Assembly (NCBI RefSeq): GCF_036507355.1
Contig: NZ_AP027880.1
Source of the DNA: Escherichia coli
GTDB taxonomy: Bacteria > Pseudomonadota > Gammaproteobacteria > Enterobacterales > Enterobacteriaceae
Direction: 5' to 3' (one strand)
Length of the DNA stretch: 10,032 bases
The number at the start of each line of letters is the position of its first letter. Position 1 is the stretch's first letter. A program made the translations under genes and the position numbers. The notes beneath the pieces were generated by a model. The model did not search any database. It was given only the letters and a program-made list of their open reading frames with translations, and was not told the DNA's origin. Below, in pieces: positions 313 to 6,188 of the stretch.

Positions 313-1245
313 GTCCTCAAGTCGTTTCCTAAGTTGGCCGCCGACAAAGAGTTGGCTGCTGCGCAGCAGCAGCTAGGTATGCAGCGCTTGTTGACTTCGC
401 AATGTTCAGCAGGGCAAGCGGAGCAAAGCTGCTTGGTGGTCTCTGGCTCGTTGGATACGGCAGGCTCTGACGGCCCAATTGGTCGCCGTCAGCAAACAGC
501 GGGGACTGTCACACTAGGGCGAGGTCTTGATGAGCGCTGGACGGTGGGGGCAAGCTTGTCGCTGGCGCACTCGAGCTTGCACCACAACGCAGTAAATCCT
601 AAGAATGCTTATGGCGTAAGTGGCTGGGTGAACTACAGCGAGCATGGCTTGTCCGGTCTTGGCTGGCAGATGGATGCAGCCATTGGTTATGCGAAGAACA
701 AGAGCACCATCACCCGTGGTCAGGGCCTTGAGCATGTTCACCTGGTGCAGGGCACAAGCAATTTAGACACAGTGGCAGCTCGTATTGCCTTGGGGTTTGG
801 CATCCAGCAGCGTCATGGATGGACTTTGACGCCAGCAGTGTCTGTGACACAGCAAAACAGCAAGTTTGCAGCTTACAGTGAGTCGCCTTCAGCCTTTACT
901 GCGTCGTACGATAAATCGGAGCTTAAAACGACTGTGTTGGGAGTGGATCTGAGTGCCAAGAAGTCTTTGAGCGACAAGTCGCAGCTGCGTTTAGCGGTAG
1001 GCGTTGAGCAAGACCTTAAAACGGATCGTATGAAGCTGGCTGGCGTCTCTGATGTTCCAGGAGCGCAGCGATTTAACTTAGAGAGTGCTTTAGAGCGCAA
1101 GAAACTGCGTCCTTATGCCTCTGTGGGATACCGCTATCAAGTCAGTGCACAGGGGGCTGTGTTTGTGAACACAGGCGTGATGCGGGATATGTTCTCGAAC
1201 AAACCCAACGTGGGTGTGCAGGTCGGTTATAGCGCACGGTTTTAA
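1..1245 (+). CDS. HAF-repeat autotransporter, C-terminal part: last HAF repeats, linker and autotransporter beta-barrel translocator domain. The 5' end runs off the window start and is probably continuous with 9010..10032 on a circular molecule.
   Basis: Frame 1 is open from base 1 (track ORF 31..1245 is only the first in-frame GTG). The N-terminal part is the same 52-aa repeat seen at 9097..10032 (…GTGRHAFRWTSAGGMQDLGD…). The C-terminal ~280 aa has the alternating-hydrophobic pattern of an autotransporter beta domain and ends …VGVQVGYSARF-stop, the typical terminal aromatic signature. A terminator follows. Confidence 0.85.
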   Translation, partial: DQQGYSSATAVSADGSTVVGGADYDLTAGGTGRHAFRWTSAGGMQDLGDFTSDQQGSSSATAVSADGSVVAGIASNDAGEMRAFIYKAPQSPTDPNLPIQDYENVLKSFPKLAADKELAAAQQQLGMQRLLTSQCSAGQAEQSCLVVSGSLDTAGSDGPIGRRQQTAGTVTLGRGLDERWTVGASLSLAHSSLHHNAVNPKNAYGVSGWVNYSEHGLSGLGWQMDAAIGYAKNKSTITRGQGLEHVHLVQGTSNLDTVAARIALGFGIQQRHGWTLTPAVSVTQQNSKFAAYSESPSAFTASYDKSELKTTVLGVDLSAKKSLSDKSQLRLAVGVEQDLKTDRMKLAGVSDVPGAQRFNLESALERKKLRPYASVGYRYQVSAQGAVFVNTGVMRDMFSNKPNVGVQVGYSARF

Positions 1246-1947: not shown

Positions 1948-2023
1948 CCCTTCCCCTACGCTCAAAACGCGCTGTAGGCCCTTCTACGGGCCTTGGCGAC
2001 CCCTTCCCTTCCTGATTGCCGAA

Positions 2024-2078
2024 GCCGGAGGGGGAGCCGCCGCCGCAGGCGGTGGGGGAACCCCGCAGGGGTGCCCCA
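2024..2078. repeat. 55-bp GC-rich direct repeat, copy 1 (identical to 6089..6143); short hairpin-forming subunits
   Basis: gccggagggggagccgccgccgcaggcggtgggggaaccccgcaggggtgcccca is identical at both loci. Homology extends about 5-10 bp upstream (gatt…) with a 5-bp indel. Confidence 0.9.
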
Positions 2079-2098: not shown

Positions 2099-2170
2099 TT
2101 TCCACAGGTTGTGGCGGCCAATTACAGGTTTAGATTTATAGGATTCTTTTTTTAAAGGCTTAACCTATCG
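2099..2170. promoter_or_regulatory. oriV AT-rich region with a DnaA-box-like sequence
   Basis: TTTTCCACA at 2099..2107 (8/9 match to TTATCCACA), followed by an AT-rich stretch (ttacaggtttagatttataggattctttttttaaagg) immediately before the iterons. Confidence 0.55.
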
Positions 2171-2175
2171 GTTTA

Positions 2176-2284
2176 GGGGGGGTCCGATTTAACGGGAAAA
2201 AGGGGGTCCGATTTAACGTGGATAAGTACCCTTGGGGGGGTCCGATTTATCGAGGTGGGGGGGTCCGATTTAACGTGGATAAGT
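2176..2284. repeat. oriV iterons: four direct repeats of GGGGG(GG)TCCGATTTAACG, two extended by CGTGGATAA (DnaA-box-like); a fifth degenerate copy at 2397..2414
   Basis: TCCGATTTAACG/TCCGATTTATCG cores start at 2183, 2207, 2241 and 2264 (spacing 24/34/23 bp). cgtggataa at 2217..2225 and 2274..2282. Located directly downstream of the initiator gene, as in pVS1-type replicons. Confidence 0.85.
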
Positions 2285-2446
2285 GGCGCTATCGACAGGG
2301 TTGTGCACCGTTTTGGTCCCGCTGGGGTTTTCGGACACTTCCAGAGACATAAAACCCCGGAGATTCAATGCGTTGCACACGAATCGCCGGGGTCTAGGGG
2401 GGGCCGATCTAACGACACGTTTGTCGGACACTTCAAGGGGTTAGCG

Positions 2447-3442
2447 TTACTCGGTCGGACCGCCCTTGTAAGAGATCGGCGGCGGGGAACCGAGCAGCAG
2501 GACGCCGCCCGTGACCGGCTTCACCTTGGCCTGCGGATAGACGGCCAGAACCTTCTTGAGGGCCGGCACAAACTTCTTCTTGAAGTCCTTGTCAGCATCC
2601 TTGCCGGTGTACTCCTGCGCGAACTGCTCGCGCAGAGACTTCCAGTGCAAAGTGACGCCGCGTCCCTCGATGCGATGCAGCCGGTGGGCCAGCCAAGCGT
2701 AGACATCGAGCGCCAGCGCCGAACCTTTCAGGGCCATCAGGGCGCGGTTGTCGAGCGGTACGGCGCTTTGCATCAGTGACGTGAAATAGCCCTCGGACAA
2801 CACCATCGTGCCCGGCCATAGCGCCCGCTGCTTGGTGTCGCGGTTCGCCATCCATGCGTCGAACTGCTCGACCGGCTGTCCATTGAAGGTGCGGCCCTTG
2901 AAGCCAAGTTGCAGACGGCAGGCGGCCAGCGCGTGCATCTGCTTGCGCAGGGTCGCATAGCGCGCCCCTTGGTCGTCCAAGCCCATCAGGCTAAGGAACT
3001 CGGCCGCGCTATCACCGATCTTGATTTCGCGCTCCTTGTTGCGCACGGCAAAGGTGGACACCCACGCCAGCGCCAGCCGGGGCATGACGCCATAGGGGAT
3101 CGGTTGCAGCACCGGCCCGTTGCCTTCGTCCAGATAACCGGCCTGCACGTTCACCCACGCGGCCCCGGACTGGCGCATGAACTCGCGCCCCTCGACCTTG
3201 GCGCGGGGCAAGCCGACCTGACAAAGCACGGCGTGAGTAAACGCCATGTCCTCGCCGCTCGGCGGGTTCGTGGCGATTTCGGCGGCCGCGTCGATCAGGT
3301 TTATCTTTTGGCGACTGATGAATGACAGGCTCTTATTGCTCTGCCCTTTAGATGCCGTAGCGTCGGCCGCCCGCTTAACCTCGCGCGGCACAATGTTGCC
3401 AAGCAGCGAACCGATGGGCTGGGGGCCGTTAGATTTGCTCAT
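2447..3442 (-). CDS. repA: Plasmid replication initiator protein (iteron-binding RepA; TrfA/pVS1-RepA-like family assignment tentative)
   Basis: 331-aa ORF ending 30 bp from the iteron cluster, co-directional with and immediately downstream of the parA-parG operon. GGAGAT RBS about 9 nt upstream of the ATG at 3442. Family call is from synteny and recalled motifs (…SALALDVYAWLAHRL…), not a search. Confidence 0.7.
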   Translation of the reverse strand: MSKSNGPQPIGSLLGNIVPREVKRAADATASKGQSNKSLSFISRQKINLIDAAAEIATNPPSGEDMAFTHAVLCQVGLPRAKVEGREFMRQSGAAWVNVQAGYLDEGNGPVLQPIPYGVMPRLALAWVSTFAVRNKEREIKIGDSAAEFLSLMGLDDQGARYATLRKQMHALAACRLQLGFKGRTFNGQPVEQFDAWMANRDTKQRALWPGTMVLSEGYFTSLMQSAVPLDNRALMALKGSALALDVYAWLAHRLHRIEGRGVTLHWKSLREQFAQEYTGKDADKDFKKKFVPALKKVLAVYPQAKVKPVTGGVLLLGSPPPISYKGGPTE

Positions 3443-3469: not shown

Positions 3470-3727
3470 CTAGTTATTGTGGCGCTGCTCGTATTCATCG
3501 AAGGCCAGCCGCAACAGCTCGTTTAGCTTGAGGTCGTGGGCCGCTGCGAACATGCGGAAACGTCGACGCAGCTCGGCCGACACGCGGAAATTGAGCGGCA
3601 CATTGTTCGCCGAGGCCTCGGCCTCGGCCTTCACCTTGGGGGTGCAGGTCGGCATGTCGGCAACCGGCGCGGCGCTGCCCTTCGTGGCAACAAGGCCGGT
3701 CAAATCAGCGGGCTTCTTGGTAGCCAT
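3470..3727 (-). CDS. parG: ParG-like ribbon-helix-helix partition protein (centromere-binding partner of ParA)
   Basis: 85 aa with a C-terminal RHH fold signature (LNFRVSAELRRRFRMFAAAHDLKLNELLRLAFDEY) and a flexible Ala/Lys-rich N-terminus. Its ATG (3725..3727) lies 1 nt from the parA stop. Confidence 0.75.
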   Translation of the reverse strand: MATKKPADLTGLVATKGSAAPVADMPTCTPKVKAEAEASANNVPLNFRVSAELRRRFRMFAAAHDLKLNELLRLAFDEYEQRHNN

Positions 3728-3728
3728 A

Positions 3729-4379
3729 TTAAACGGTTTCCTTCTTTTTGGTTATCTTCTTAGCGTTCATGCGTTCTTGCACGAAAGCTAAAAGCTGGGA
3801 GATTTCCTCGGCGCTGCGGCTCTTGGGGTCGCTCTCGCCTACGGTGCGGCCGTCCACCATCGAGGCGGCATAGTCCACGCGGTCATGCACGATGGCTGGG
3901 GCTACAGCCCCATGCGCGGACAAGGCGGCCACGGCCTGAACGGTAAGCCGCGCGGTCGGCTTGGCCTGCGTCACGGCGAAGGCGAAAGGCCGGCCGGTTT
4001 CCTGCGCAATGTCCACGGTGCTGCCTACGGCCCGCAGGTCGTGCGGGCTGGGCCGGGTCGGGATCAACACAAGGTCGGCCAGCTTCACCACGTCGCGGAT
4101 AGCCTCGGTGATGGCCGGCGGGGTGTCGATCACGGCCAGCTTGAAACCAGCCTCGGCCAGCGCCCGCAGCTTGGCGGGCAGCTCGGCCAGCGAGGCGGCG
4201 GCCAGTGCCGGGGTGTCGTCCTCGCGGGAGTTCCACCACGCCGAAAGTGACCCTTGCGGGTCAGTGTCGAGCAGGACCGCCGGGCCGGCTCCTGCCTGTT
4301 CGGCGGCAACCGCAAGGTGCGCCGCTAGGGTGGTTTTCCCGGCTCCCCCCTTCTGGCTTGCTAGAACAAGGATTTTCAC
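3729..4379 (-). CDS. parA: ParA-family partition ATPase (small type Ib Walker-type, 216 aa)
   Basis: Deviant Walker A MKILVLASQKGGAGKTT at the N-terminus. GTG start at 4379 with AGAGGG RBS 5 nt upstream. Followed by the RHH partner gene. Confidence 0.9.
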   Translation of the reverse strand: MKILVLASQKGGAGKTTLAAHLAVAAEQAGAGPAVLLDTDPQGSLSAWWNSREDDTPALAAASLAELPAKLRALAEAGFKLAVIDTPPAITEAIRDVVKLADLVLIPTRPSPHDLRAVGSTVDIAQETGRPFAFAVTQAKPTARLTVQAVAALSAHGAVAPAIVHDRVDYAASMVDGRTVGESDPKSRSAEEISQLLAFVQERMNAKKITKKKETV

Positions 4380-4454
4380 ATGCGCCCTCTTGATTCGTGT
4401 TGGGACGCTTTAATGATAGCCAAAAAGCACGCATCTTGCAGAGTCTATTGAACA

Positions 4455-4474
4455 AAAGCACGCTTGCGTGCTTT
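4455..4474. promoter_or_regulatory. 20-bp palindrome aaagcacgc-tt-gcgtgcttt upstream of parA, with an extra half-site at 4424..4432; candidate par operator or centromere-like site
   Basis: Perfect 9-bp arms; the half-site aaagcacgc is repeated 31 bp away. Lies in the parA leader/promoter region. Confidence 0.45.
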
Positions 4475-4475
4475 C

Positions 4476-4526
4476 TGGATTGTGCAATCCAAAAGCCGGG
4501 GCGGCCGGCGCGTGTAATCGCAAACG
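4476..4526. repeat. Inverted repeat A (51 bp), perfect inverted copy of 5576..5626; contains palindromic core ggattgTGcaatcc and motif CGTGTAATCG
   Basis: The reverse complement of 5576..5626 is identical to 4476..4526 (checked base by base). Confidence 0.9.
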
Positions 4527-4557
4527 GGTAGGGAAGGGGAGGCCGGTTTCTGATGCC

Positions 4558-5190
4558 CTATGCCGCCGGAATCTGCCGGCGGGAGGCCCATATTCGTTTG
4601 ACCTGGCTCTCGCTGCATCCGGCCAGCCGGGCGGTTTCCGCGATGCTCGATCCGCCCTCACGCAAGGCCACGACGCGAGCGTGTAGCGCCCGGTTTGGTT
4701 TCCTACCTCTGTAGCGGCCGGCGGCCTTGGCAAGCTCTATGCCCTGCCGCTGCCGCTCGCGGCGGTCCTCGTAGTCGTCACGCGCCATCTGCAGGGCGAG
4801 GCGCAAGAGCATGTCTTGCACCGATTGCAGGACGATGCGGGCCACGCCCTCGGCCGTCTCGGTCAACTCTGACAGGTCCACCACGCCGGGCACGGCGAGC
4901 CGCGCGCCCTTGTCGCGGATCGCCTGCACAAGCTGCTCGGCCTCGGGCAAGGGCAGGCGGCTAATGCGGTCCATCTTCTCGGCAATGACAACCTCGCCGG
5001 CCTGCAAGTCCGCGATCATGCGCAACAGCTCGGGCCGGTCGGCGCGCGCGCCGGATGCCTTCTCACGATAGACGGCGGCCACGTAGTAGCCGGCCGCCTT
5101 CGCGCTCTCGATGATGGATTCTTGCCGGCGCACGTCCTGCTCGTCGGTGCTGACGCGGATATAGACCCGTGCGACCTTGGACGCTGCCAT
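4558..5190 (-). CDS. Small serine recombinase (resolvase/invertase family), about 211 aa
   Basis: N-terminal catalytic motif MAASKVARVYIRVSTDEQ and C-terminal HTH (SIAETARLAGCSESQVKRIW). Start placed at ATG 5188..5190 with AGGAGG 7 nt upstream; the track ORF (to 5310) is over-extended into the upstream gene. Confidence 0.85.
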   Translation of the reverse strand: MAASKVARVYIRVSTDEQDVRRQESIIESAKAAGYYVAAVYREKASGARADRPELLRMIADLQAGEVVIAEKMDRISRLPLPEAEQLVQAIRDKGARLAVPGVVDLSELTETAEGVARIVLQSVQDMLLRLALQMARDDYEDRRERQRQGIELAKAAGRYRGRKPNRALHARVVALREGGSSIAETARLAGCSESQVKRIWASRRQIPAA

Positions 5191-5201
5191 TTTGGTGCCT
5201 C

Positions 5202-5456
5202 CTACCGGATGCTCGGCATTCCGGTGCCCCGGAACATGGCTTTCTGCTGGGCCGCCATCGCGTTCTTGCAATTGGGCGTGTCGGCCAGCTCGCCGGGGTT
5301 GTTCCGGCATTCCGCGATCTGCGCCTTACGCTCGTCGGGATGGTCGAGGAAATAGGCCACGTCATGCACGGGGCGGGCGTCGGCCGCTTCGTCGCTGCTG
5401 GCAGGATTGCAGGCCGTCAGCACGGCCACGGCGGCGAGCGTCATCACAAGGCGCAT
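5202..5456 (-). CDS. Small lipoprotein, EexN/TrbK-like (entry-exclusion family resemblance; tentative), 84 aa
   Basis: Lipoprotein signal peptide with lipobox (MRLVMTLAAVAVLTAC). Mature part has the two-Cys pattern …HPDERKAQIAECRNNPGELADTPNCKNA…. AAGGAG RBS 7 nt upstream of the ATG at 5456; ends 11 bp before the recombinase start (operon). Confidence 0.6.
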   Translation of the reverse strand: MRLVMTLAAVAVLTACNPASSDEAADARPVHDVAYFLDHPDERKAQIAECRNNPGELADTPNCKNAMAAQQKAMFRGTGMPSIR

Positions 5457-5487
5457 AGTTTCTCCTTTGGCGCAGTTGGGTATTCCT

Positions 5488-5530
5488 AAATGCGCCCAGC
5501 ATAGCAGCTAGGGCGCATTTGGTGAATCCG
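5488..5530 (-). promoter_or_regulatory. Candidate promoter with overlapping palindromic operator for the lipoprotein-recombinase operon
   Basis: On the minus strand, TTCACC-17 nt-TATGCT lies about 30 nt upstream of the lipoprotein ATG. It overlaps the perfect 10-bp inverted repeat aaatgcgccc…gggcgcattt (5488..5520). Confidence 0.4.
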
Positions 5531-5575
5531 CGATGCTATTGCGCTAGGCTCGCAAAGCCGATCCATCTGCGCCAG

Positions 5576-5626
5576 CGTTTGCGATTACACGCGCCGGCCG
5601 CCCCGGCTTTTGGATTGCACAATCCA
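5576..5626. repeat. Inverted repeat B (51 bp); here the core sits in a full 30-bp palindrome cggcttttGGATTGcaCAATCCaaaagccg (5603..5632), a candidate serine-recombinase crossover site
   Basis: Perfect inverted identity with 4476..4526. Two 14-bp arms around a central CA dinucleotide (TG in copy A), the geometry of resolvase/invertase site I. Confidence 0.6.
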
Positions 5627-5634
5627 AAAGCCGT

Positions 5635-5678
5635 GTTCGCGCTTCGCCGGGCCATCCTCGACGCGGCGAAGCGCGAAC
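5635..5678. other. Perfect 15-bp inverted repeat with 14-nt spacer (gttcgcgcttcgccg…cggcgaagcgcgaac); candidate accessory recombinase-binding subsite or structural hairpin next to the crossover site
   Basis: Seen directly in sequence; lies 3 bp beyond the 30-bp palindrome. Confidence 0.4.
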
Positions 5679-5707
5679 GCGAGGCCAGCGGCCAATAGGC
5701 GAAAGGT

Positions 5708-5734
5708 CGGCCGGCTCTGCCGGCCGGCTTTTTT
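5708..5734 (+). terminator. Terminator-like GC hairpin followed by T6 in the intergenic region
   Basis: ggccgg-ctctg-ccggcc then ggc tttttt. No plus-strand gene lies immediately upstream, so the role is unclear. Confidence 0.35.
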
Positions 5735-6088
5735 CATGGAATCGGATCCCGGTCGCCGGCCGGGGATTCCTTCAACGTGTAATCGGTCACGCTAGAAAGC
5801 CATAGGACGCGCTAGGAGCGCCGCACCGGCCGGGCCGCTACCTTCCCCCTCCCCTGCCCTAAAGAACGCCGCCACGGGCTGCCAGCGCAGCCGTAGGCGT
5901 ATCAGATTACACGTGCCCCCCGGCCTCTTTTGGTGCTTTCCACCTATCAGCCCGCAACCAGGTCAAAGGAGATCCACGACACTGGCCGCCAGCTCTCTTC
6001 CCTGCCGAGCCTGCCGGCCGGTAGGCCGGCCCATCGCCGGCGCAGCCGGCGCTACAAAACGCTTCGGCCGCTTGCGGCCGTCCGATTA

Positions 6089-6143
6089 GCCGGAGGGGGA
6101 GCCGCCGCCGCAGGCGGTGGGGGAACCCCGCAGGGGTGCCCCA
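6089..6143. repeat. 55-bp GC-rich direct repeat, copy 2 (identical to 2024..2078), immediately upstream of the Rep_3 initiator RBS
   Basis: Exact 55/55 identity with copy 1. Confidence 0.9.
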
Positions 6144-6188
6144 AGGGGGGCGACGTCGCGGAGGGCCGCAGGCCCGGAGGTTGTCAGG

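Follow-up and report, generated by a model that had tools for sequence, protein, structure and literature searches.

Dispersed repeats around a plasmid recombinase gene are very probably iteron-type sequences of a RepA_C replicon

The stretch of DNA analysed here (10,032 nucleotides from Escherichia coli, contig NZ_AP027880.1; hereafter, the window) is the reverse complement of a ~10-kb plasmid of 63% G+C and corresponds to E. coli p2017.17.01CC_2 (contig AATLNC010000078.1). It carries four copies of a short repeat dispersed around a serine recombinase gene. A preliminary description, made from the sequence alone, had proposed that these are binding sites for one protein, perhaps accessory subsites of the recombinase or sites for a plasmid regulator. 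Our analyses indicate that the repeats, which we call M sites (M1 to M4), are very probably iteron sequences of the RepA_C type (consensus CGTGTAATCG-N3-A-Y-G) located outside the origin of replication. The idea of a single binding protein is supported, as the motif core is identical in all paralogous copies while their flanks diverge, and the same is true in sister plasmids. Regarding the regulator, RepA of the RepA_C family fits best, as the motif belongs to the iteron-type sequences of this family, whereas the partition protein ParG is an unlikely candidate. By sequence comparison, the RepA family is the only protein family consistently tied to the motif.

Number and conservation of the repeats

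The 9-mer CGTGTAATC is present in exactly four copies in the window (Table 1), as had been reported, and none of 200 dinucleotide-preserving shuffles reached this number (shuffle mean, 0.04), which does not support a frequency due to chance. When one mismatch was allowed, a single extra copy appeared, at 7068-7076. The motif had been given as 9-10 bp long with an optional final G. This G follows the 9-mer in copies 1 to 3, but copy 4 reads CGTGTAATCT, and the site is really longer: the four copies all fit the 16-mer CGTGTAATC-N4-ACG without mismatch, where 0.42 copies would be expected with up to two mismatches. Similarly, the positions first assigned to copies 1, 3 and 4 were right, whereas that of the second copy (5581..5590) was 1-2 bases off. 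Two copies indeed lie in inverted repeats and two in the intergenic region towards the gene of the Rep_3 initiator. The latter are found between the right arm of the inverted repeat and the Rep_3 gene, 276-413 nt upstream of its start codon. Since copies 1 and 2 are inside a 98%-identical inverted repeat, the four copies represent three independent occurrences, which is still far above chance. In the window, the M sites are single and dispersed, M3 and M4 forming an inverted pair ~120 bp apart.

The motif is conserved in sister plasmids. The contig called L024 has six exact copies, namely a tandem pair 24 bp apart upstream of the eexN lipoprotein gene, a pair 36 bp apart between the recombinase gene and parA, and the inverted M3/M4 pair. 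Relative to L024, the window has apparently lost one copy from each arm, and the number of copies per arm varies among the window, L022 and L024. The motif is also kept in the more distant plasmid L176, whose recombinase, ParA, ParG and RepA are 86, 83, 76 and 83% identical to those of the window, respectively. L176 has an M site, with a T at core position 5, beside the palindrome described below, and CGTGAAATCGGA-Cn at its origin, oriV. The fact that it keeps the M and oriV classes side by side suggests that two classes of sites are maintained apart. In contrast, no copy was found in the relatives with near-identical recombinase, ParG or Rep_3 proteins described below. The close relative AP027811 contains many indel errors, which makes it uninformative for conservation. 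A BLAST search of the intergenic region against plasmids for distant matches returned the same plasmid only. Our literature search with the motif sequences yielded nothing relevant, and the IncP-6 papers that were retrieved describe no such sites.

Other identities for the motif were discarded. Its TGTAAT could be viewed as a -10 hexamer, but there is no acceptable -35 element, and a promoter scan returned no promoter-like sites. The motif does not match the DnaA box TTATCCACA. As for a structured RNA or known RNA family, Rfam gave sub-threshold chance matches only. Folding of the M3-M4 interval was no better than that of shuffled sequences (z = -0.97).

The repeats resemble RepA_C origin iterons

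The oriV of the RepA_C replicon in the window harbours four iterons (Table 1) that read CACGTTAAATCGGA-C7, with the full form CACGTTAAATCGGACCCCCCC, whereas the M sites read CGTGTAATCG-N3-AYG and lack the C-tract. The oriV iterons of L024, L022 and pWES-1 are of the form CACGTGAAATCGGA-C6-7, one base off the motif core. We scanned genome contigs for tandem CGTGTAATC; the matches were mostly noise, and at least three informative loci were present among the matches listed. These three loci encode RepA_C homologues, and in each of them the motif is the core of the oriV iterons. In L097, from Roseomonas (RepA_C homologue 40% identical), six copies of CGTG[C/T]AATCGGTGAC are followed by an AT-rich region. 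In L034, a betaproteobacterial metagenome-assembled genome (MAG; 34% identical), three copies of CACGTGTAATCTGTCCCGCC and one CGTGCAATC variant are found with a DnaA box. Both of these arrays lie just downstream of repA. In L115, a Desulfuromonadaceae MAG (26% identical), three copies of TTATCCACGTGTAATCGCTAACG precede an AT-rich region, ~1.1 kb from repA. All three are typical iteron arrays with DnaA-box overlap. M3 and the L097 iteron agree at 14 of 15 positions, the CACGTGTAATCTG of M4 is identical to the L034 iteron (13/13), and M1 matches the L115 iteron at 19 of 24 positions. The agreement of the latter with a copy of the sister plasmid L024 reaches 16/16, with 21 contiguous bases in common. 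Altogether, the M sites align in register with the oriV iterons of eight RepA_C-family replicons.

With a weight matrix built from six foreign oriVs, nine sites of the window reached 15.6 bits or more (0.03 in shuffles), namely M1 to M4, the four iterons of oriV and one additional site at 907. The M sites scored 15.6-18.1 bits, equal to the plasmid's own iterons, a score that is partly circular because half of the training set (three oriVs) was found through the motif itself; the independent fact is the place of the motif in those loci. In an unbiased sample of closer RepA_C origins, the same frame was found with a variable core triplet, as in CACGCAGAATCGGA-Cn of pXAC64 and CGTACATCCGA-Cn of an E. 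coli plasmid, and single-base variation at those core positions occurs within individual oriV arrays. The M sites of the window do not have the surroundings of an origin array, since they have no AT-rich stretch or DnaA box alongside and are not in tandem at the ~21-24-bp spacing of such arrays; even in L024, the tandem arrangement is limited to pairs. DnaA-like boxes are found in the window only at 2098-2282.

Two iteron-like 13-mers of the origin type, facing each other, were also detected in the autotransporter gene of the plasmid. The first, TACGATAAATCGG at 907-919 (+), is unlikely to occur by chance (17-18.5 bits), and the second, TAAGTTAAATCGC at 1068-1080 (-), is marginal (14-15 bits).

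The structural model of RepA (predicted local distance difference test, pLDDT, 76.6; predicted template modelling score, pTM, 0.77) has a tandem winged-helix fold. Its structural matches are domains 2-3 of RctB, which is the best, a complex of Rep with the DNA unwinding element (Rep-DUE) and the RepE54-iteron complex, with E-values of 5e-6 to 4e-3; no sequence match to RepA was found in the PDB. The model thus identifies RepA as a predicted tandem winged-helix protein of the RepE/TrfA/RctB kind. The RepA proteins of the window and L024 are 97% identical, and their differences cluster at residues 137-163 (~2954-3034, minus strand), which makes this patch a candidate specificity determinant. The oriV iterons of the two plasmids differ by one base (CGTT vs CGTG), while M is unchanged. 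The constancy of M, while the oriV iterons and the RepA patch differ, mildly suggests that M and the origin iterons are not read in the same way.

The repeats belong to the RepA_C module of a cointegrate

The plasmid codes for two initiators, one of the Rep_3 type and one of the RepA_C type, and its sequence identifies it as a cointegrate between a Rep_3/MobA backbone and a ~4-kb module comprising eexN, the resolvase gene, parA, parG, repA and oriV. Paracoccus plasmid III has a 92% identical Rep_3 protein and a similar MobA, and its backbone is broken in the window by the ~4-kb module. This module is bounded by a perfect 56-bp direct repeat (Table 1), which looks like the point of fusion of the two replicons. 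This element is present beside the origins of many unrelated plasmids, including those of Paracoccus, Nitrotoga, Azonexus, Burkholderia, Xanthomonas and Agrobacterium as well as L162, a plasmid described below.

The sister contig L024 has the same module (~94% identity) in another backbone. There, copies 3 and 4 are located in a segment (window positions 5645-6143) that runs on without a break from the oriV side of the 56-bp element, so all four copies belong to the RepA_C module. The M3/M4 pair of L024 is found ~340 bp beyond oriV, and the contig has no Rep_3 gene. In the window, the motif is near the Rep_3 gene because cointegrate formation placed them together. The repA gene starts 27 nt after parG, a spacing that suggests that it is probably co-transcribed with parA and parG in one operon.

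The Rep_3 gene has the appearance of an orphan. Among its relatives, three GTGCCTTTTTTCCGGT iterons precede rep by 100-150 bp. This sequence is absent from the window, in which just 45 nt (6144-6188) separate the 56-bp element from the Rep_3 start codon. The variants L001 and L002 have an in-frame 81-nt deletion in the Rep_3 gene (window ~6252-6332).

A palindrome-linked unit

M1 and M2 are located in the two arms of a 54-57-bp inverted repeat (98% identity; arms 4470/4473-4526 and 5576-5629/5633) that encloses the serine recombinase and eexN genes. Each arm contains a composite unit, with the palindrome TTTTGGATTG(TG/CA)CAATCCAAAA followed by a GC-rich spacer of 16-21 nt and then by M. The centre of the palindrome is a non-palindromic TG/CA dinucleotide, found in opposite orientations in the two arms. 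Beside M4, the sequence resembles a third palindrome unit that has decayed.

The 22-bp palindrome is present in exact form in ~90 plasmids of PLSDB, including the IncU plasmid RA3 (mpR-mobC region), and no obvious DNA-binding protein is common to these plasmids. It is also found near res/parDE in Agrobacterium and Xanthomonas plasmids, beside unrelated recombinases, and far from any recombinase. In RA3, it corresponds to the DR1(IR)/DR2(IR) motif, whose role is stated to be unknown by the authors (PMC4175270). We scanned metagenomes with a pattern composed of the palindrome followed by CGTKNAATC, which allows eight core variants. The palindrome-plus-M unit was detected in many contigs, and 13 of the ~15 genuine units have the exact CGTGTAATC. 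A second M, outside the search pattern, often comes next in these units, with a DnaA-box-like TATCCA ahead of it, similar to oriV arrays.

Several other features were observed around the arms. The hairpin of the left arm is followed by TTTTGG on the minus strand, which makes it terminator-like, directly after the recombinase gene. On the other side, a rearrangement (deletion) junction at ~5641-5645 abuts the right palindrome, beside a hairpin with an 18-bp stem (5632-5681). The apparent 3' end of a truncated small gene (...VFALRRAILDAAKREREASGQ*) lies within 5630-5735, and a strong terminator-like hairpin with a T-run is present at 5705-5735 (+).

Possible roles of the repeats

We infer that RepA binds the M sites, and the consequences of this binding would be as follows. 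The module's own RepA would recognize them as a second class of sites, distinct from the oriV iterons (CACGTTAAATCGGA with a C-tract). The M sites would limit copy number by titrating RepA or by pairing with origin-bound RepA (handcuffing), and they would couple the parA-parG-repA and eexN-resolvase operons to the level of RepA. Their location upstream of both operons would tie both to the initiator level. In addition, as repA starts so closely after parG, any control of the initiator would probably need to be exerted in the parA promoter region, which contains M1. We consider that the chances are even that the M sites are RepA-bound auxiliary sites acting in copy-number or operon control. Extra-origin initiator sites, a known kind of plasmid control element that is not described in the RepA_C family, are most likely what they represent.

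A number of observations weigh against this proposal. Compared with the plasmid's own oriV iterons, the M sites show two base differences in the core and do not have the C-tract, which this RepA clade conserves, and their 3' halves are closer to the iterons of distant RepA_C lineages than to the resident ones. With a non-circular matrix derived from the C-tract clade, M3 and M4 scored only 10.4-10.8 bits, which is not significant alone, and M1 and M2 were below the listed top sites. No extra-origin sites were found in the RepA_C plasmids pAt2 and pWES-1 or in the Azonexus plasmid. The M sites are ~50-150 bp upstream of the predicted promoters without overlapping them, and they are not arranged in the close inverted pairs typical of operators for Rep dimers. 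Several metagenome contigs have palindrome-plus-M arrays beside toxin-antitoxin and relaxase genes, with no RepA_C gene in the fetched stretch. Finally, L162 (Ga0182749_1003785), a complete 10-kb circle (123-nt terminal overlap), has the same recombinase, ParA and ParG as the window, with an RPA-type initiator that has its own CCCTAATAGACGG iterons and no RepA_C. Next to its palindrome upstream of parA, there are still four C-tract iterons, in part degenerate, and another of its palindromes is accompanied by an M4-like site and two further iterons. L162 shows a replicon swap in an otherwise conserved maintenance module, and its sites would fit either relics left after such a swap or a binder other than RepA. 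The persistence of similar sites in a plasmid without RepA_C thus leaves room for relics or for sites of another factor. Nevertheless, since its sites are decayed or missing in two of the three units, L162 leans towards dependence on RepA.

One alternative is that the M sites are evolutionary relics, i.e. leftover iterons of an earlier or foreign RepA_C replicon that moved with the palindrome unit and have no present function. We regard this as unlikely, although it deserves serious consideration. These plasmids show strong mosaicism, as seen from the cointegration event at the 56-bp element and from the deletion junction next to the right arm; the number of copies per arm differs among close relatives; the 3' halves of the M sites match the iterons of L115 and L097 better than the resident oriV; and L162 keeps partly degenerate RepA_C-type iterons without a RepA_C gene. 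However, the 9-10-bp core is perfect in all four to six paralogous copies despite the divergence of their flanks, and it is retained in L176 at ~83% protein identity. The loss or degradation of sites in two of the three units of L162, which lost RepA_C, is also the outcome expected under relaxed selection, provided that the sites have a function elsewhere.

It is doubtful that the whole palindrome-spacer-M unit is bound by another factor, either a protein of the host, which might work together with DnaA, or some further plasmid protein. In this case, the unit might serve as a module boundary or recombination hot spot, as an insulator or terminator, or as part of a partition site. This possibility would account for the fixed distance of 16-21 nt between M and a conserved palindrome in many contigs, for the presence of the palindrome alone in ~90 plasmids, including RA3, that share no obvious DNA-binding protein, and for the location of the units at module junctions, as with the rearrangement junction of the window that abuts the right palindrome. 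The terminator-like succession of an arm hairpin and a T-run would also fit. However, we found no candidate protein common to all M-bearing elements, and homology to iterons accounts for the sequence of M, down to the overlap with DnaA boxes.

ParG is disfavoured as the binder of the M sites, or as the protein for which they would form a centromere, because its probable boxes are different and its relatives lack M. Three AAAGCACGC boxes lie over the predicted sigma-70-like parA promoter (-35 CTGCAA, -10 TATCAT, minus strand), and two of them form a palindrome. In the Xanthomonas plasmid L013, the ribbon-helix-helix region of ParG is near-identical to that of the window, and the boxes are conserved upstream of parA, so that they probably represent the operator or centromere of ParG. 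In the stretches of the 6-kb L013 locus that were read, no motif was seen, the whole 52-kb plasmid not having been searched. Similarly, L162, whose ParG is 80% identical, has no M at parA.

The M sites might also be decoy iterons matched to other RepA_C lineages, which would titrate the initiator of competing plasmids or recruit that of a co-resident plasmid. This reading stems from the identity of M with origin iterons of the L115, L097 and L034 types and from the persistence of similar sites in L162 without RepA_C, and we consider it improbable.

The role of accessory subsites of the serine recombinase, which had been put forward in the preliminary description, is not supported, and we consider it very improbable. 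The inverted repeat encloses the recombinase gene and could make the recombinase-eexN segment invertible or resolvable, and the central TG/CA of the palindrome is in opposite orientation between the arms, as a crossover site would be. However, the Bordetella plasmid Bpp5, whose recombinase is 89% identical with the same helix-turn-helix and recognition helix, has neither a copy of the motif nor the palindrome, and L162, whose recombinase is 94% identical, has no motif copy beside the recombinase gene. On the basis of these two comparisons, the recombinase was rejected as the binder. Furthermore, a separate res-like stretch, at 5476-5570, is conserved upstream of the Bpp5 recombinase. It contains the inverted repeat AAATGCGCCC-N13-GGGCGCATTT and CGCGATGCTATTGCG, and in the window the eexN gene is located between this stretch and the recombinase gene. 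The paired inverted half-sites of 25-34 bp by a crossover site that make up the accessory architecture of res sites are absent, the M sites being single 16-mers. The palindrome, for its part, is also found with unrelated recombinases or far from any. A switch of the Hin/Gin type was rejected, since gene order and orientation are alike in nine public loci (the contig of the window itself not counted), among them the diverged L022 and L024; none has an inverted isoform of the recombinase-eexN segment, although assemblies may hide minor isoforms. In NCBIfam, the recombinase has only weak matches far below the cut-offs (e.g. Mpi, 22 bits for a cut-off of 272).

Lastly, that M sites are iterons or operators of Rep_3, as the position of M3 and M4 upstream of its gene might suggest, is extremely improbable and was ruled out, since the motif is absent from the Paracoccus plasmid and from L004-L008, Rep_3 relatives use GTGCCTTTTTTCCGGT, and the M3/M4 segment of L024 is beside the RepA oriV on a contig devoid of Rep_3. 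Even taken together, the recombinase, Rep_3 and chance have only a small probability of explaining the repeats.

Other features of the plasmid

The positions of the features are collected in Table 1. The autotransporter gene contains a 156-bp tandem repeat (9087-10032 and 1-215) with at least six copies that are ~94% identical, and the number of copies differs among the window, L001 and L002.

Table 1. Positions of the repeats, genes and other elements in the window
Feature	Position	Strand	Remarks
Copies of the 9-mer CGTGTAATC	4511-4519; 5583-5591; 5776-5784; 5905-5913	+; -; +; -	
M1, iteron-like site CGTGTAATCGCAAACG	4511..4526	+	In the left inverted-repeat arm, with the stop codon of the recombinase gene on one side and the parA promoter on the other; 16.0 bits on the foreign-oriV matrix
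M2, iteron-like site CGTGTAATCGCAAACG	5576..5591	-	In the right inverted-repeat arm; the eexN-recombinase operon lies downstream of it
M3, iteron-like site CGTGTAATCGGTCACG	5776..5791	+	Resembles the Roseomonas L097 oriV iteron (see text)
M4, iteron-like site CGTGTAATCTGATACG	5898..5913	-	Resembles the L034 oriV iteron (see text)
Left arm of the inverted repeat	4470..4526	.	M1 preceded by the palindrome (4473-4494) and a GC-rich hairpin (4495-4509)
Right arm of the inverted repeat	5576..5633	.	M2, GC-rich hairpin 5593-5607, palindrome core 5608-5629, perfect 14-bp arms 5604-5633
oriV iterons of the RepA_C replicon, four of (C)ACGTTAAATCGGACCCCCCC	2176..2286	-	Two overlap the DnaA-box-like TTATCCACG
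Degenerate fifth copy of the oriV iteron	2399-2416		
AT-rich stretch by oriV	~2110-2170		
repA	2447..3442	-	331 residues; Pfam RepA_C (PF04796) at 8.6e-20; proposed binder of the M sites
parG	3470-3727	-	Ribbon-helix-helix protein
parA	3729-4379	-	
Three AAAGCACGC boxes, probable ParG operator/centromere	4424..4474 (boxes 4424, 4455 and 4466 on the minus strand)	.	Over the predicted parA promoter; distinct from the motif
Serine recombinase gene	4558-5190	-	
eexN, EexN lipoprotein gene	5202-5456	-	
Probable res site and promoter of the recombinase operon	5476..5570	.	Shares conserved sequence with the upstream region of the Bordetella Bpp5 recombinase
56-bp direct repeat, perfect, copy 1 (cointegrate junction)	2023..2078	+	Adjoins the RepA oriV; sequence AGCCGGAGGGGGAGCCGCCGCCGCAGGCGGTGGGGGAACCCCGCAGGGGTGCCCCA
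56-bp direct repeat, perfect, copy 2	6088..6143	+	45 nt upstream of the Rep_3 start codon at 6189
Rep_3 gene	6189-6986	+	

Significance

The RepA_C family comprises IncP-6-like replicons and many replicons of Xanthomonas, Ralstonia and Acetobacter, and its control circuitry is hardly described. If RepA binds the M sites, this small plasmid would use a divergent second class of iterons to link its operons for partition and multimer resolution to the level of its initiator, and the logic of two site classes known for RctB and for the auxiliary iterons of P1, F and RK2 would extend to the RepA_C family. The plasmid is widespread, since a protein identical to the recombinase of the window is indexed in 128 blocks of public assemblies and metagenomes, i.e. 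well over a hundred. The portable palindrome-plus-iteron unit would mark module boundaries in mosaic plasmids. Were the M sites decoys, this unit would carry a built-in incompatibility weapon. If they are relics, the repeats are still explained without the recombinase, and the construction of the cointegrate is documented.

Comparison with known systems

The arrangement of the window is reminiscent of the res sites of Tn3 and gamma-delta and of hix and gix sites, in that a serine recombinase gene has repeats in its vicinity and is enclosed, like that of the Hin system, by an inverted repeat. It differs from them by the lack of a half-site architecture, by a motif that does not track recombinase orthologues, by a distinct res-like region and by the lack of an inverted isoform among the loci compared. 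Like the operators for Rep dimers, such as those of mini-F RepE, pPS10 RepA, R6K pi and pSC101 (IR-2), the M sites resemble part of an origin iteron and are found upstream of an operon that contains rep. In contrast, those operators are composed of close inverted half-sites over the rep promoter, whereas M sites are single, in tandem 24-36 bp apart or inverted ~120 bp apart.

A closer parallel may be drawn with auxiliary iterons. P1 incA, F incC and the extra clusters of iterons of RK2 oriV are located outside the minimal origin and act by titration or handcuffing. Similar to them, the M sites are iteron-type sites at some distance from the origin array that occur in small groups and in both orientations, and they would be expected to exert negative control on copy number. 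However, the iterons of those systems are essentially identical to the origin iterons, whereas M differs in its core (TGT vs TTA or TGA) and has no C-tract. The M sites are also scattered over three places, two of which precede the partition and resolvase operons, and every one is associated with a conserved palindrome. The other parallel is RctB of Vibrio cholerae chromosome 2, which acts on 11/12-mer iterons and on regulatory 39-mers. The 39-mers have no sequence relation to M, and neither a methylation logic nor a crtS-like element is evident here. Nevertheless, according to the structural model and the sequence comparisons, both systems would have one tandem winged-helix initiator that serves an origin and a divergent class of regulatory sites.

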